IMG/VR virus record: IMGVR_UViG_3300028388_003135
Coordinates: 91-64,090 of that record
Origin: a virus
Lineage: Duplodnaviria > Caudoviricetes
Strand: one strand, 5' to 3'
DNA: 64,000 nucleotides
Numbering within the stretch: position 1 is the stretch's first letter; every line of letters starts with the position of its first letter. Of the stretch, positions 1,115 through 60,807 are shown piece by piece. Position numbers and translations under genes: made by a program. A model generated the notes under the pieces. The model saw only the letters and a list, made by a program, of their open reading frames with translations, was not told the origin of the DNA and did no database searches.

Positions 1115-2596
1115 ATGAATTCACAAGCCAACGCTACTGTGTACGACAAAGCCGCTCACGCCTTTAAGCGTGGCGTGCCTATTGTGACGTTGACGACCGC
1201 CGATCCCGCGTTAACCGTGAAGCTTCTGCGTGAAGCCATCGACGCGCCTTTAGTGCAGTTTGATGTCGCTGATGGCTGGAAGGTGCCCGAGCAGCCAAAC
1301 CAAGAAGAGGCTAAGAAGCGCCTCGCCGTGGTCGACTGTGACGCACAGCCGGATCCTGCAGAGGCGTTGATTCAGTGCCGACAAATGGACGACGATACTG
1401 TCGTTGTGTTGCATAACGCTCATGTCTTTGTTAACAGCGATGTAGAGCGGCAAGCGATTTGGAATTGTCGCGACGAGTTCAAAGCGACCAACAAGATGCT
1501 AGTCCTGCTCGGTCCGCAGTTTCAAGTACCAGCAGAATTGCAGAATGACGTAGTGCAACTAGACGAGCCGCTACCTGACCATAGCGAACTCGTCGACGTG
1601 ATTGCTGGCCTTTGTGCCGAAGTCGATGTAGATGTCGATAGCGAAGCAGTGCAACGCGCAGCATCGGCCTCAGCTGGCCTATCTGGCTTTGCTGCTGAGC
1701 AGTACGCTGCGATCAACCTGAGTCGCGAAGGCTTGGACGTGCCAGGTATTTGGGAGGACAAGTGTGCCAAGATCAATGAAACGCCAGGCTTACAAGTCGT
1801 ATCTGGCGACAAGACGTTTGAAGATGTTGCTGGCGTGAGTCAAGCGAAGAAGTTTGTGCGGAAGATTCTCGGCGGTTGCGATGCTCCGAATACGATTGTA
1901 TTCATCGACGAGATCGAGAAGTCTATTAGCGGGCAGGGTGACACCTCTGGCGTGTCCCAGGATCAACTTGGTGTGCTGCTACAGTGGATGCAAGACAATG
2001 CCGCTACCGGCATGATCCTTGTCGGACCACCAGGAGCAGCGAAGTCAGCGTTCGCTAAAACGGCTGGCGGCGAGGGCGGCATTCCGACAATCCAATTGGA
2101 TCTTGGCGGGATGAAAGGCGAGTTCGTCGGAACGTCTGAGACGCGAATCCGCGATGCACTTAAGGTAGTGCATTCAGTGTCTGGCGGCAAAACGATGTGG
2201 ATTGCAACATGCAACTCTCTAGCATCGCTGCCACCAGAGCTCAAGCGACGATTCAACTTCGGCACATGGTTCTTCGATCTGCCAACCCGCGAGGAACGCA
2301 AGGCGATCTGGGATCTCTATGTCGCAAAGTTTGGCGTCAGCGATCCCAGCGACAAGCTACTCGACCAACCTTGGACCGGAGCCGAGATCGAGTCCTGCTG
2401 CCGAATCGCTTGGCAAACCAATGACACAGTTGACGAATGTGCAGAGTTTATCGTGCCCGTTGCGACCGCAGCCGCGGATAGTATTGCCAAGCTGCAAGAG
2501 TCCGCTGTAGGCAAGTTTCTCAATGCCGCTGCTCCAGGACCATACGCAAAGCCTAAACCACAGAAGGCGAAGCGAACTCGCAAAGCGAGCATCTAG
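1115..2596 (+). CDS. Ycf46-like AAA+ ATPase with Walker B block placed before Walker A block
   Basis: IVFIDEIEK (1895-), GDTSG, GPPGAAKS (2024-2047), FVGTSE, IATCN, LPPEL.RRF; degenerate N-terminal AAA domain. Confidence 0.9.
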   Translation: MNSQANATVYDKAAHAFKRGVPIVTLTTADPALTVKLLREAIDAPLVQFDVADGWKVPEQPNQEEAKKRLAVVDCDAQPDPAEALIQCRQMDDDTVVVLHNAHVFVNSDVERQAIWNCRDEFKATNKMLVLLGPQFQVPAELQNDVVQLDEPLPDHSELVDVIAGLCAEVDVDVDSEAVQRAASASAGLSGFAAEQYAAINLSREGLDVPGIWEDKCAKINETPGLQVVSGDKTFEDVAGVSQAKKFVRKILGGCDAPNTIVFIDEIEKSISGQGDTSGVSQDQLGVLLQWMQDNAATGMILVGPPGAAKSAFAKTAGGEGGIPTIQLDLGGMKGEFVGTSETRIRDALKVVHSVSGGKTMWIATCNSLASLPPELKRRFNFGTWFFDLPTREERKAIWDLYVAKFGVSDPSDKLLDQPWTGAEIESCCRIAWQTNDTVDECAEFIVPVATAAADSIAKLQESAVGKFLNAAAPGPYAKPKPQKAKRTRKASI

Positions 2597-2712: not shown

Positions 2713-3150
2713 ATGAGCAAGATGACTCACCATGATTTACGGATTGGCGACAAGGTCAGCGTGAATGGCAAGCCACCACGCACCATAAGCAGGTTGCTAG
2801 GCGGCGATCGGTTCACAGTCCACGGGATCGCAGGCAGCGGCGAGCCGGCTTTTCAGGTATGGTCGTTCTACGAGAACAACGTCCTGCGGACCGAGCAAAC
2901 GTCCGACACTGGCGTGCGGTATGTGGATGCATTCCTGCTAGCACTGGATGAATCGAACGGCATCCTAGACAGTGAGTTCGCGGACAAGTGGCTAGATGAA
3001 CTGCTCGACGAAGGTAGCGAACTCGTCGAAGATGTCCGGCAAACGTTTCTGAGCCACTCGCCTATTTTTCGCTTCCCAGAATCCACGCAGCTAATCATCA
3101 GCCGACTAGGTGAGGTTGCGTTTAACGAACCGGAGACCACGGATGAATGA
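2713..3150 (+). CDS. Hypothetical protein
   Basis: ORF with GGAG RBS. Confidence 0.6.
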   Translation: MSKMTHHDLRIGDKVSVNGKPPRTISRLLGGDRFTVHGIAGSGEPAFQVWSFYENNVLRTEQTSDTGVRYVDAFLLALDESNGILDSEFADKWLDELLDEGSELVEDVRQTFLSHSPIFRFPESTQLIISRLGEVAFNEPETTDE

Positions 3151-3670
3151 ACAGCAACTCTCAGAGCTTTTGACCGACATCTACCCTCAGCTGCAACGGC
3201 AAGCCAGACAGATCGTTAGAGAGAACCCACGTTACGATGCTGACGATGTTCTGCAGCAAGCAATGATCAACGCAACCAGAGCATTCCGCGTAGGGCATTA
3301 TGACGGAATGGACCCAAACGGGATCCACTATTGCGTGGTCAACGAAGTTCGTCGAGCAGTGATCAAGATGTCGGCAAAGCAGCAACGAGCACAGCGAGAC
3401 TATCGCCGAACGCAACACGCCGAAGCGATAGACCTGTCATTCCTAGTGTTAGACGCGACAGAATCGCGTCTAATCGCCGAAGATACCGTCGAACGCATAA
3501 AATCACGTCTTTGCCTGACACCGCACTGGGAGCGAAATGTGAAGGTTTTCGAAGCCCTAATCGCCGGACACTCGATGGCAGACATCAAGAGGCAAGGGAT
3601 GACGAACCGAGCTGTTCGATCAGCGGTCCAAGAGATCCGCGAAATCGCAACAGAATTTCTGGCTTTATAG
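3143..3670 (+). CDS. ECF/sigma-70 family RNA polymerase sigma factor
   Basis: Region 2-like IYPQLQRQARQIV...DADDVLQQAM; region 4 HTH-like VFEALIAGHSMADIKRQGMTNRAVRS. Confidence 0.75.
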   Translation: MNEQQLSELLTDIYPQLQRQARQIVRENPRYDADDVLQQAMINATRAFRVGHYDGMDPNGIHYCVVNEVRRAVIKMSAKQQRAQRDYRRTQHAEAIDLSFLVLDATESRLIAEDTVERIKSRLCLTPHWERNVKVFEALIAGHSMADIKRQGMTNRAVRSAVQEIREIATEFLAL

Positions 3671-3703
3671 CGCCCCAAACGTTTGGGTGCTGGGCCATAC
3701 CTA
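3670..3703 (+). promoter_or_regulatory. Bipartite early-promoter-like motif with palindrome
   Basis: GCGCCC at 3670 and GCCATAC at 3694; the leader TAGGCAAAGTTCATTTCAC(T/C)GGAGGCACCA is shared with 4706-4735. Confidence 0.65.
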
Positions 3704-3734: not shown

Positions 3735-4658
3735 ATGGTTACTGAAGAAAATAAGACCGAGTTCGCTGAAAAGCTTCGGGCACAAACTTGCGGCGTACGG
3801 TTCCGTTCGTTTGGTATGACGTTGAGTCGCAAGCTAGATAAGGACAAGATCCAGGACATCGCTACGCAGTTTGACGCCGACAGTGAGTCGTTGACTGCAA
3901 GTAAGCGGATTCTCGACAGCAAACATGGTAGCGTCCGCAAGGTTCGTGCTACGCAACGGCAAGCAAAGATTGAGGTTCACAAGAACTCAATCGACTATCC
4001 GGAGAAGGGGCTGCGACTAATCAAAACGGCAGCTATTGAGGCAGTCACCCAGCGAATCGCTGACTATAAGATTGAGTTGGACGAGGCTTTGCAAGAGCTC
4101 TACGACGATTGGGATGACATCAAGGCCGAACGGCAAACCGCCCTCAAAGAACTGTACAGCGATTCGGATTATGATCTCGATGTGCGCGAGCACTTTGCAA
4201 TCTCAATCGAGTTTCCCGCTATTGAGCCAGATCAGCGGCTGATGACATTGCATCCCGAACTTTACGCTGCTGAGCAGGAACGTATCGGGCAGCAATTCGC
4301 CGAAGCACTGATTGAGCTAGAGATCGCTGCAAAAGCGGAATTGACAAAGATGCTGAACCACTTCGTAGAACGCTTAGAGCCAAGCGAGGACGGCAAGAAG
4401 AAGACGCTGACCGAGTCAACGCTTGTGAAGCTTCACGAATACGCAGAGTACTTCAAGTCACAAACAATCGGATCGCATGCCGACCTGGACGGGCTAATGG
4501 CAGAAATCTCTGATTGGTGCCAGGGCCGCAACGTTGAGCAGATCCGCAAGGGCGACCCTATGTACCGCGAGGGCGTCAAGGCGGATCTTACACGATTTAA
4601 AGAAGCTGCTAGCGCGCTAGTCATTGCTAAGCCTCGCCGCATGATCGACTTGGACTAA
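3735..4658 (+). CDS. Helical protein, DUF3150-like
   Basis: GGAGG RBS; 'ASKRILD...YPEKGLRLI...F.I..EF' pattern; adjacent to AAA/DUF1257/DUF2997. Confidence 0.55.
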   Translation: MVTEENKTEFAEKLRAQTCGVRFRSFGMTLSRKLDKDKIQDIATQFDADSESLTASKRILDSKHGSVRKVRATQRQAKIEVHKNSIDYPEKGLRLIKTAAIEAVTQRIADYKIELDEALQELYDDWDDIKAERQTALKELYSDSDYDLDVREHFAISIEFPAIEPDQRLMTLHPELYAAEQERIGQQFAEALIELEIAAKAELTKMLNHFVERLEPSEDGKKKTLTESTLVKLHEYAEYFKSQTIGSHADLDGLMAEISDWCQGRNVEQIRKGDPMYREGVKADLTRFKEAASALVIAKPRRMIDLD

Positions 4659-4671
4659 TGGCGGCGGCGCA

Positions 4672-4703
4672 GCGCCCCAAACACAAACGTTTGGGGCCTT
4701 TAC
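4672..4703 (+). promoter_or_regulatory. Bipartite early-promoter-like motif with palindrome
   Basis: GCGCCC at 4672 and GCCTTTAC at 4696. Confidence 0.65.
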
Positions 4704-4737: not shown

Positions 4738-5199
4738 ATGAGTCATATTTCAGCAGTCGACTTTCGATTCGACGAAGCGCACTTCGACACGCTCGCTAAG
4801 GACTGCGAAGCGCTAGGGCTAGAGCTTGTTCGGAACGCTACCACGTACAAGTGGTATGGTCGGGATATGGGCGACTATCGCGACAAGACAGCAGGCGAAC
4901 TCGGCATCGTGCCTGACGGCAAGTGTTCGCATAAGATTCGCGTCAAAGACGCGGATAACAGCACGTATGAAATCGGCCTAGTTGCCGATCCGCAAAACGC
5001 TGGCAAGTTCATCCCAGTGTGGGATTTCTGGAACGGCGGGCATGGCTTGATGAAGCTGGTGGGTGATGGTGAAGACATTAACAAGCTCACGCACACGCAT
5101 TCGCTGTCGGTCACCCGAAAGACGCTCCGCAAGAAAGGACTACGTTGGAGTGAGTCAGTAGGCCAGGACGGACGCACGCGATTTAAGGTCACACTCTAA
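4738..5199 (+). CDS. DUF1257 (Ycf35-like) protein
   Basis: MSHIS...L...CEALG...YEIGL...WDFW. Confidence 0.75.
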   Translation: MSHISAVDFRFDEAHFDTLAKDCEALGLELVRNATTYKWYGRDMGDYRDKTAGELGIVPDGKCSHKIRVKDADNSTYEIGLVADPQNAGKFIPVWDFWNGGHGLMKLVGDGEDINKLTHTHSLSVTRKTLRKKGLRWSESVGQDGRTRFKVTL

Positions 5200-5210: not shown

Positions 5211-5420
5211 ATGAAACGTTTCAACAAGTCAAGCGGAACCGTCGACATCACATTCAACGCTGATGGGTCGACCGACATCAAAGTAGAAGGCGTAAAGGGC
5301 AGCAGCTGCACGAAGCTTACCGAGGACATTGAGTCCGCAATTGGTGTCACCAAGTCGAGCAAGAAGACCCGCGAATATCGCGAGAAAGAACAGAGGCAGG
5401 GACGAAAGGCAACGCAATGA
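5211..5420 (+). CDS. DUF2997 family protein
   Basis: ITFNADGSTDIKVEGVKGSSCTKLTEDIESAIG...T.EY. Confidence 0.85.
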   Translation: MKRFNKSSGTVDITFNADGSTDIKVEGVKGSSCTKLTEDIESAIGVTKSSKKTREYREKEQRQGRKATQ

Positions 5421-6062: not shown

Positions 6063-6094
6063 GCGCCCCAAACACAAACGTTTGGGGCCTTTCT
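6063..6094 (+). promoter_or_regulatory. Bipartite early-promoter-like motif with palindrome
   Basis: GCGCCC at 6063 and GCCTTTC at 6087. Confidence 0.6.
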
Positions 6095-21128: not shown

Positions 21129-21638
21129 ATGGGGTCGCAACGACACCCACCAGGCGCAACCAGCGGGTTCCCTGACACCCTTGAAGAAGACGGGTTGTCG
21201 CCTGAGGAATCGTTTGCCATTGAGACGCGAGCAATTCGCGAACTCTGGATTGGCAGCGGTGAAGCATTTGCTAAGGGACGGCAAGCGCTGATGAACAAGA
21301 TTCTCAAGATCGGACTCACCACTCAAGATGAAGGCATGGCAGTGTCTGCGATGAACACGTTGGTTCGTGCAGAGCTAGGAGTTCAGCGAAACGCAATTCT
21401 AGCCAAACGTTTGGACATGGGCGGGTCGGGCGGCGACTTGCCTCCGCAAGCTGAGCCAGAAAAGCAGGAGCGAGCAATTGTTATCGAGGGCTCGGCGAAA
21501 CCTGTCAGTCCGCAGGACTTCGTCCGCCAGATGATCGGTAATCAGGATGTCAGAGCCTCTATCCGAACTCGACTTAGTAACGCCACTGAATTACGCAGTA
21601 GCGACGAACAACCAATTCAAGAGGGCGAGACATCTTGA
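21129..21638 (+). CDS. Putative terminase small subunit
   Basis: Position immediately upstream of TerL; helical; start uncertain. Confidence 0.45.
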   Translation: MGSQRHPPGATSGFPDTLEEDGLSPEESFAIETRAIRELWIGSGEAFAKGRQALMNKILKIGLTTQDEGMAVSAMNTLVRAELGVQRNAILAKRLDMGGSGGDLPPQAEPEKQERAIVIEGSAKPVSPQDFVRQMIGNQDVRASIRTRLSNATELRSSDEQPIQEGETS

Positions 21639-22983
21639 GCTTCTTGAGCATGAGCTCATTGAAACACTCAACAATGAGTTTGATGTTCTAATTGCCCAAG
21701 CGCCGCCTCGGCATGGGAAGTCCTGGTTTCTCGCTCGCGAATTCCCGAAGTGGTATCACGGCGTCTGGCCTGAGCATCAATCTCTGATTACCAGTTACCA
21801 GCTGGACCTAGCCCGAGATCATTCCTCCTATGTTCGCGACGAGTTCCACCGCCTTGCGCCCTACTGGGGATTGGAGGGTGTTCGCTACTCAAAGGCAGCG
21901 GCGGCGAAGTGGGAGATTGCAGGCGGTCCCGGCGATATCATGGGCGGTTGTCGCGCAGCGGGTATCGGCGGCGGTATCACTGGGCGCGGTGCAAACGTGT
22001 TCATTATTGACGACTACCTCAAGAACGCTGAGCAAGCGACGTCAGAACGGATTCGCGACAAACAATGGGAATGGTTCGAAACGACTGCTTGGACTCGGTT
22101 GGAACCGGGCGGCAAGATGATCATCCTTGCGACCCGGTGGCATGAGGACGACTTAATTGGTCGAGCGTTGAGGTTCTTGACCGCAGCCAATTTCAAGGTT
22201 CGCGAGATCCGACTGCCTGCGCTAGCTGAGCCAACCGACGAGCAGCCAGATCCGCTAGGCCGCAAGACAGGCGAAGCGCTATGGCCAGAGCGATGGTCCG
22301 CCGAATACCTACGACAGCAACAGTTGCTGTTCGATCCCTATTGGTTCAATGCGATGTACCAGCAGCGGTTAGGTAGTTACGGTGCAAATGAGTGGCCGAG
22401 CGAATACTTCTGGAACATGATGGTTCAACCGGAGGATTGGCCGCAAACGTTTGAGTTCTCAGCAACGGCTCTAGACCCGTCCAAGGGCAAACAGGCTAAG
22501 GTTGGCGACTTTTCAGCAATTGTGAACGTCGCATATCACAAAGGCTACTTGTGGGTGGAGGCAGACCTAGAACGACGCGATGCTGGCAAGATGGCAAGCG
22601 ATCTCGTAGCGTTCAATGACTTGCGAAGGCCAATTGTCACAGGGATCGAGGCAAATGCGTTCCAGCACTTGTTGGCGGACACCTATATTCAGGCGCAAAT
22701 AGATCACGGAAACTATCGCGACGAACCGGAGCTGATTGATAACAAAGTTGCAAAGGCTTTGCGGATAGCGAGGCTCGGCTTCTGGTTGCGAATTCATCGA
22801 GTCAAGATCAAGGACACGCCAGGCGGGCGGCTGTTGTTTGAGCAATTGAAGCACTTTCCCAACGCCAAGTATGACGACGGGCCCGATGCGTTCGAGATGG
22901 CCCTTAGGCTTCTCCTGCAGGCGAGCTGGGACCCGACGTTGAATCAGCTAGCCGAGGGTAACGTTACGCACATCGCGGCGTAG
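21547..22983 (+). CDS. terL: Terminase large subunit
   Basis: APPRHGKS, GITGRGA, IIDD, TRWHEDD, LDPS, FPNAKYDDGPDA. Confidence 0.95.
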   Translation: MSEPLSELDLVTPLNYAVATNNQFKRARHLELLEHELIETLNNEFDVLIAQAPPRHGKSWFLAREFPKWYHGVWPEHQSLITSYQLDLARDHSSYVRDEFHRLAPYWGLEGVRYSKAAAAKWEIAGGPGDIMGGCRAAGIGGGITGRGANVFIIDDYLKNAEQATSERIRDKQWEWFETTAWTRLEPGGKMIILATRWHEDDLIGRALRFLTAANFKVREIRLPALAEPTDEQPDPLGRKTGEALWPERWSAEYLRQQQLLFDPYWFNAMYQQRLGSYGANEWPSEYFWNMMVQPEDWPQTFEFSATALDPSKGKQAKVGDFSAIVNVAYHKGYLWVEADLERRDAGKMASDLVAFNDLRRPIVTGIEANAFQHLLADTYIQAQIDHGNYRDEPELIDNKVAKALRIARLGFWLRIHRVKIKDTPGGRLLFEQLKHFPNAKYDDGPDAFEMALRLLLQASWDPTLNQLAEGNVTHIAA

Positions 22984-60704: not shown

Positions 60705-60807
60705 GGCTAGTCGGTCGTCTACTGGATAGGACGCCTGTCGGTGGCGGGCTTGCAATCCGTCAAGACAGGAGAAGCGGGGTTCGATTCCCCGCCCGGCGAT
60801 TTAGCCA
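60705..60807 (+). tRNA. tRNA-like RNA with extended anticodon arm (loop CTTGCAA, anticodon TGC/Ala)
   Basis: D-arm GTC-TACTGGATAG-GAC, T-arm GCGGGG-TTCGATT-CCCCGC, 3' CCA at 60805-60807. Confidence 0.55.

Follow-up and report, generated by a model that had tools for sequence, protein, structure and literature searches.

An AAA ATPase family with the Walker B block encoded ahead of the Walker A block

The motif order Walker A, Walker B and sensor 1 serves as a definition of AAA+ proteins, and the connectivity of the P-loop core of the additional strand catalytic glutamate (ASCE) type is among the most conserved features of protein evolution. In circularly permuted P-loop GTPases (YjeQ/YlqF type), the nucleotide-binding motifs are reordered along the chain and the site is kept in three dimensions (3D); permuted DNA methyltransferases were reportedly treated by Bujnicki in 2002. 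Both represent circular permutations of a whole domain, with new termini. Here we describe an AAA ATPase gene (1115-2596, + strand) of the virus record IMGVR_UViG_3300028388_003135, in which, by contrast, the domain termini are unchanged and two internal blocks are swapped: the Walker B block is encoded before the Walker A block. The window is the whole stretch analysed, 64,000 nucleotides (positions 91 to 64,090 of the record).

The closest described relatives of the encoded protein (P0001, 493 aa) keep the canonical order. In type II classical AAA proteins (p97/Cdc48, Rix7, NVL), which are the best structural matches of the P0001 model at 12-14% identity, both domains do so and D1 is usually active; they share with P0001 the features of the classical clade, such as two Arg residues in the second region of homology and the GAE lid motif. 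Gp60 of Rhodobacter phage RcTiptonus (P0122) runs Walker A, pore loop, Walker B, sensor 1, with blocks that closely resemble those of P0001 and a linker of ~30 residues at the position that the Walker B block occupies in the permuted family. Some members of this gp60-type family carry the JGI label 'SpoVK/Ycf46/Vps4 family AAA+-type ATPase'. Finally, AAA proteins encoded on plasmids rather than phages (Candidatus Manganitrophus CP114554.1 and Pseudanabaena galeata pPg_01) present the canonical motif order, a similar C-terminal tail, and ~26-27% identity over most of P0001.

A single open frame (1115-2593) carries the full motif set of P0001. After an N-domain (residues 1-230; 1115-1804), the predicted active domain opens with a linker and helix a0 (FEDVAGVSQAKKFVRKILGG, residues 237-256; 1823-1882), beginning with FEDVAG (237-242) and supported by an AlphaFold2 helix at 242-252 and by coevolution. 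The Walker B block comes next (residues 257-297; 1883-2005), displaced forward and composed of the strand IVFIDE, a GDTSG loop at the pore-loop-2 position, and helix 3; its motifs read IVFIDEIEK (261-269; 1895-1921) and GDTSG..LLQWMQD (275-294). The Walker A block follows (residues 298-358; 2006-2188), with strand 1 and the P-loop GPPGAAKS (GMILVGPPGAAKS, 299-311; 2009-2047), helix 1, strand 2, the pore loop FVG (within EFVGTSETRIR, 336-346), and helix 2. The sensor-1 strand (MWIATCN with N367; WIATCN at 362-367) and the second region of homology with R378 and R379 (LPPELKRRF, 372-380) occupy 2189-2251, and the lid helices (GAEIESCC) and a conserved C-terminal tail (IVPV..L..A.GKFL.A) occupy 2282-2593, all on the + strand. 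Along the chain, Walker B is followed by Walker A, pore loop 1, and sensor 1, which is not the canonical arrangement.

Each of these motifs is recognizable on its own. IVFIDE fits the Walker B pattern hhhhDE, GPPGAAKS fits the Walker A pattern GxxxxGK[ST] with Ala replacing Gly ahead of the Lys, and both the sensor-1 Asn and the second region of homology with its Arg fingers are present. The original prediction, made from the letters of the window, had claimed a Walker B block ahead of Walker A with frame and motifs intact and a Walker A of the form GxxGxAKS, and all of this stands. It had placed the feature at 1865-2300, where the swap indeed lies, although it belongs to the whole gene (1115-2596); position 2024, given for the Walker A segment, is right for the start of GPPG, whereas the strand itself begins at 2009.

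Comparison with classical AAA proteins displays the same rearrangement. PF00004 of Pfam matches P0001 at 53.5 bits (cut-off 21.2) in two stretches, the best of them aligning residues 300-352 to profile positions 1-53. When searched against PDB chains with phmmer, P0001 aligned to VAT (5vc7) in non-collinear pieces, as had been anticipated for an alignment to Ycf46: residues 297-356 correspond to VAT 320-379 (Walker A to helix 2), residues 260-304 to VAT 381-428 (Walker B to helix 3), and residues 366-432 to VAT 430-501. The elements at both ends are unmoved: a0 still opens the domain, and sensor 1, strand 5, and the lid still close it. Thus, the swap of two adjacent blocks of the AAA core is not a simple circular permutation of the whole domain with new termini, in agreement with what had been proposed.

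We then consider how widely this order is shared. A word-indexed search scored 8,000 candidates and retrieved 1,928 proteins at E <= 1e-3; for 117 of the 119 matches listed besides P0001, one BLASTP alignment spans 92-100% of it, and the remaining two are a 384-aa fragment and an intein-bearing protein. An exhaustive search of cluster representatives retrieved 6,105 at E <= 1e-3, 3,264 at <= 1e-10, and 1,130 at <= 1e-30, and the best 150 of the 6,105 all scored E <= 2.6e-95, mostly in one stretch. The Walker B-before-A order was present in 15/15 aligned homologues. A strict pattern for it fits 233 of 267 family proteins; by inspection, 33 of the other 34 have a variant Walker B (e.g., VEELDK, DEGEK) in the same place, or a Walker A that is variant or holds an intein, and in the remaining protein (P0205) an intein interrupts Walker A and the BLAST match over residues 20-307 is collinear. 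Overall, the permuted order holds for 267/267 proteins. It also holds for all 160 related loci (80 IMG/VR viral contigs and 80 contigs of bacterial metagenome-assembled genomes, MAGs, from GTDB), where Walker B lies at most 75 residues upstream of Walker A and never downstream, as well as for gp103 of Tunturi_3, an isolated and completely sequenced Tunturiibacter phage (35% identity). No member with two Walker B blocks was found among the 267 proteins and 160 loci; of the 6,105 matches, the best-scoring part was covered. Since the order is present in every relative examined, as the original prediction had suggested to check, chance is excluded. The non-circular permutation of the AAA core is real and conserved.

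In a 150-sequence alignment of members with 37-56% identity to P0001, E266, G307, K310, N367, and R379 are invariant, and D265, S311, V338, G339, and R378 are conserved in at least 90%. Several members (P0070, P0123, P0133, P0158, P0205, P0211, P0246) carry inteins within the permuted AAA, whose insertion points fall in three catalytic sites, namely the Walker A (GPPG|C), the pore loop 1 (VGES|), and the sensor 1 (IAT|C); inteins occur in the RcTiptonus gp60-type normal-order family too.

The two families are homologous over their full length. With hhalign, the permuted and the gp60-type families align over 459 columns (probability 100, E 3.3e-49), including N-domain, active AAA, lid, and tail, and the Walker B block appears as an insertion after helix 2. 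Taken separately, the Walker B block aligns with the normal-order Walker B block (probability 99.3, E 6.5e-21, 39 columns) and the Walker A block with the normal-order Walker A block (E 1.2e-30, 58 columns), whereas three cross controls gave E 0.07-0.36. The N-domains (residues 1-225) align at E 1.7e-18, and the Walker B signature DEI[DE]K..GD.G..WMQ[DE] is common to both families. At the level of single sequences, BLASTP aligned residues 92-463 of P0001 to gp60 in one piece (E 1e-13), with a gap of ~53 residues at the gp60 Walker B block. The best PHROG match of P0001, PHROG 8638 (E 8.5e-46), is divided in four stretches. This split, like that of the PF00004 match, is a warning that profile tools break such proteins into partial matches.

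At the structural level, the monomer prediction that had been recommended was performed with AlphaFold2 on the 150-sequence alignment and gave a mean predicted local distance difference test score (pLDDT) of 95.9 and a predicted template modelling score (pTM) of 0.91. The helices (H) and strands (E), which alternate in the expected way, are H242-252, E260-264, H280-294, E298-303, H310-321, E325-328, H338-356, E360-366, H374-379, and E384-386, followed by the lid helices. With the full-length model, Foldseek retrieved the type II AAA proteins p97/Cdc48, Rix7, and NVL (E about 1e-12, TMq up to 0.52), and P0001 apparently keeps a normal AAA fold. The N-domain has TADP at the P-loop position and lacks the Walker B DE, and its predicted structure fits an AAA-like D1 that would be catalytically dead.

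We also applied mean-field direct coupling analysis (DCA) in two runs, one with 322 sequences (effective number, Meff, 288; 112,575 couplings) and another with 400 sequences and the active domain only (Meff 280). The top coupling, T260-S356 (rank 2 in the first run, rank 1 in the second), links the point where the Walker B strand begins with the point where helix 2 ends; in normal AAA proteins, these two points are adjacent along the chain. Other top couplings connect a0 with the P-loop and helix 1 (V241-A309, A244-F313, and V248-A317, in both runs), helix 3 with helix 2, and the GDTSG loop with the pore-loop-1 region. Counting strand-block pairs above the 99th percentile, the first run gave 8/90 for Walker B-sensor 1, 5/80 for Walker A-sensor 1, 4/56 for Walker A-b5, and 4/72 for Walker B-b2, against 0/72 for Walker B-Walker A and 0/80 for b2-sensor 1. 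The second run displayed a weaker version of the same pattern: 4/90 for Walker B-sensor 1, 3/80 for Walker A-sensor 1, 2/72 for Walker B-b2, 1/56 for Walker A-b5, and 0/72 for Walker B-Walker A. The rules on right-handed b-a-b crossovers are an established basis for a topology argument. Coevolution supports a sheet whose strands follow in space the ASCE order b5-b1-b4-b3-b2, which is the canonical one, and the secondary structure predicted by AlphaFold2 agrees with it.

Taking everything together, we consider it highly probable that this gene encodes a phage Ycf46-type AAA protein with exchanged Walker B and Walker A units and a canonical sheet, likely a ring-forming remodeller that belongs to a four-gene module and originated by duplication and loss. 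P0001 would combine an AAA-like N-domain that is dead with a classical AAA domain that is active; in the latter, the Walker B unit (strand 3, the pore-loop-2 region, and helix 3) would have traded chain places with the Walker A unit (strand 1, P-loop, helix 1, strand 2, pore loop 1, and helix 2), a change equivalent to a circular permutation of an internal segment. The canonical b5-b1-b4-b3-b2 would become 5-2-4-1-3 in the protein's own chain numbering. Only three connections would be altered (a0 to b3, a3 to b1, and a2 to b4), re-routed by one or two strand positions, with all crossovers right-handed and each helix on its native face. As these changed loops would be situated along the N-terminal edge of the sheet rather than near the ATP site, the site itself (K310, D265/E266, N367, and R378/R379 in trans) and the pore loops would be kept. 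For its origin, we infer that the Walker B unit, or a segment with both units, was duplicated and the old copy was then lost.

The protein is probably an active ATPase, judging from its motifs, and by analogy with its relatives it is most likely a ring-forming, ATP-driven protein remodeller or unfoldase. It has the two-domain layout of the Ycf46 type, with an N-domain, one active AAA, and a C-terminal tail in ~500 aa. The Ycf46-type label is one that we presume to be suitable from the comparison with the normal-order family of phages.

Some points weigh against this reading. The sheet order comes from coevolution and the topology argument; the depth of both DCA runs is modest, as their Meff values indicate, and DCA cannot separate contacts within a chain from those between chains. 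Besides, off-pattern blocks had one or two pairs each in the first run (including Walker B-b5 2/63, b2-b5 2/56, and sensor 1-b5 2/70) and a few pairs in the second (sensor 1-b5 2/70, b2-sensor 1 1/80, and Walker A-b2 1/64). The kinship of the N-domain with an AAA domain depends mainly on the fold match, and its sequence signal is marginal (E 0.018). Finally, the Ala in GPPGAAKS departs from the classical Gly, and the pore-loop aromatic position is Leu in most members (consensus LVG).

The last two departures are what a catalytically dead scaffold resembling an ATPase would lead us to expect. We regard it as improbable, given that K310, E266, N367, and R379 do not vary in the 150 sequences, that D265, S311, and R378 are nearly as constant, and that inteins target the same catalytic motifs. 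We assign a similarly small probability to a 3D domain swap, in which the forward Walker B unit would take its place in the core of the adjacent ring subunit. The original prediction offered 'rewired or domain-swapped' as its inference, and the blindness of DCA to the chain of origin leaves room for the second term. However, the AlphaFold2 monomer is compact and has no low-confidence linker around residues 255-300, and the a0-b3 and a3-b1 linkers are short (~7 and 3 residues), which fits rewiring within the chain. Rewiring is therefore the part backed by coevolution and the monomer model, and a swap between subunits found no support.

P0001 does possess an AAA-like N-domain, so the DE could in principle be the Walker B of that domain, with a downstream domain that lost its own. 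This is very improbable: the DE strand lies downstream of the FEDVAG/a0 linker, with which the active domain begins; its block shows homology to the block carrying Walker B in D2 of the normal-order family; and coevolution ties this block to three D2 elements, namely the sensor-1 strand, the second strand, and helix 2. Because the N-domains and the Walker B blocks of the two families align separately, we discard the assignment of the DE motif to a separate upstream domain, which had been named as a possible refutation. An artefact of assembly or annotation, with two adjacent segments of a normal AAA gene swapped in the contig, has a practically negligible probability in view of the 267 proteins from several sources, the 160 loci, and the isolated phage with the same order at 35-58% identity; a single systematic assembly error across the family is implausible because the sources are independent (NCBI, JGI, ENA, Logan, and an isolated phage). 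The exchange of the Walker B and Walker A units within one chain remains our preferred reading.

The genes downstream of the AAA gene form a conserved module with it, all on the + strand. The DUF3150-like gene (3735-4658, with an alternative start GTG at 3687) was found by iterated profile search in 138/162 loci, always on the same strand as the AAA gene, and by BLAST clustering in 66/78 loci. PF11348 was matched by 12 of 56 aligned members. Its AlphaFold2 model (pLDDT 91.2) matches uncharacterized phage proteins in BFVD, including a DUF3150 protein, and a protein atlas agrees; we found no fold match in PDB, no sequence match in PDB, whether the protein alone or its profile was used (best E 0.29-0.5), and no PHROG. 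In Tunturi_3, the partner (gp96, L001 9393-10352) matches the family profile at E 2.3e-83 and clusters with it. No supporting evidence was found for its 'HNH endonuclease' label, which looks wrong. Complex prediction of the AAA and DUF3150-like proteins, run without controls, gave a score of 0.00 and a mark of 0.32, and it bears neither for nor against binding.

A DUF1257 (Ycf35)-like gene of 153 aa (4738-5199) follows, present in 111/162 loci. The window protein by itself had no Pfam match, and the family profile aligned with two plasmid DUF1257 proteins in hhalign (E 7.3e-18 and 1.3e-19). Next to it lies a DUF2997 gene of 69 aa (5211-5420; PF11211, E 5.2e-13, 49.1 bits, cut-off 24.1), found in 108/162 loci. 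The AAA gene thus has nearby the DUF1257/Ycf35 and DUF2997 genes characteristic of Ycf46-type linkage. A cluster of DUF2997 and ycf35 in cyanobacteria is described in a published study (PMC4284462). The four genes form a conserved module within the early/replication region of a tailed phage, and their products may cooperate.

The same partners accompany AAA genes of normal order. In the Candidatus Manganitrophus plasmid, DUF1257, DUF2997, and DUF3150 genes flank a normal-order AAA, and in the Pseudanabaena plasmid DUF1257 and DUF2997 do. Since these same partner genes flank normal-order AAA, the permuted protein most likely does the same job. In the Pseudanabaena plasmid (L165 1-3632), the AAA, DUF1257, and DUF2997 genes also adjoin those for GrpE, an Hsp70 family protein, and a further ATP-binding protein, neighbours that hint at a tie of the module to protein folding or remodelling. 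RcTiptonus has no DUF3150-like gene; gp59 and gp61 were tested and neither is DUF3150-like.

The permuted gene is distributed over viral contigs of 10 to 125 kb and over MAG contigs of Acidobacteriota (many), Planctomycetota, Armatimonadota, Nitrospirota, Gemmatimonadota, Dormibacterota, and Proteobacteria. Among named relatives, the one nearest to P0001 is a protein of a Pirellulaceae MAG (49% identity). The megabase size of some MAG contigs suggests prophages. Some MAGs have several permuted AAA copies (L092, L096, L100, and L104 in one Acidobacteriota MAG; L101, L136, L153, and L157 in one Bryobacter MAG), a part of them on contigs of 2-3.6 Mb, which suggests multiple related prophages or another mobile element.

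Full-text searches of the available literature retrieved no paper on AAA proteins in which Walker B precedes Walker A; the matches to 'permuted' that we examined concern FHA domains and methylases, and the words ATPase, AAA, and Walker are absent from the main text of the Tunturi phage paper. DUF3150 was mentioned in a single preprint of that literature. Regarding anti-phage systems, P0001 does not match the IetA/IteA family: PADLOC IetA gave a weak and partial match (E 2.1e-5, residues 359-433), and NCBIfam IteA gave 19 bits for a cut-off of 510. Defence-system libraries displayed only generic AAA similarity.

These findings bear on protein evolution and AAA mechanics. The family comprises a thousand or more sequence clusters and is carried by phages and prophages across many bacterial phyla; it shows that evolution can fix a swap of internal blocks and keep it under purifying selection. 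It offers a natural test case of chain connectivity against folding, allostery, and ring mechanics of AAA motors, with normal-order sisters for comparison, and the module connects Ycf46-like, Ycf35-like, DUF2997, and DUF3150 proteins. Function can be tested, because at least one cultured phage-host pair, Tunturi_3 on Tunturiibacter psychrotolerans, carries the permuted gene. We put forward only as a speculative and rather unlikely proposal the joint claim that the family is the first AAA+ lineage in nature whose ASCE core is rewired in a non-circular way, that the rewiring is not neutral, and that the four-gene set works as one machine. If it were true, helix 3 (after the pore-loop-2 region) would run straight into the P-loop strand and helix 2 (after pore loop 1) into the sensor-1 strand, a new mechanical coupling of substrate loops to the nucleotide site, and the phage four-gene version could reveal the role of the long-unexplained ycf46 and ycf35 of plastids and cyanobacteria.

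The window comprises nearly the entire IMG/VR record (64,090 bases, linear, CheckV completeness of 70%), and its large open reading frames (ORFs) are all on the + strand. Apart from the large terminase (21547-22983, + strand), it encodes a head maturation protease, a helicase, an ERF recombinase, a Gp157-like protein, and DUF3268, together with a tRNA-Ala (anticodon TGC, 60720-60799), the sole tRNA of the window. Judging from these genes, the source is a tailed phage.

Around the AAA gene, we observed a Shine-Dalgarno-like AGGAG (1104-1108, + strand), 6 nt ahead of the ATG at 1115. Right after the stop codon, at 2597-2650, two G+C-rich dyads (GGGGATGGTGTCCCC; GGCGCGGCGAG...CTCGCCGCGCC) without a T run were seen by eye; the terminator scan of the window did not report them. 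A 186-aa ORF between the AAA and DUF3150-like genes (3110-3670) weakly matches a phage RNA polymerase sigma factor family (phrog_1740, E 0.0047).

Finally, the palindrome CAAACGTTTG(GG) is hugely over-represented in the window, with 86 matches on both strands at up to one mismatch for 0.28 expected from shuffles. Among the loci analysed, it is present in the window's own record (L083) and in none of the other 163. Copies flank the AAA gene and are found, for example, at 1046-1057, 2657-2668, 3676-3687, 4684-4695, and 6075-6086. The 62 AAACGTTT cores are spaced ~1 kb apart, and 25 of them lie outside ORF bodies though ~92% of the window is coding. The palindrome is possibly a phage-specific protein-binding or regulatory site.

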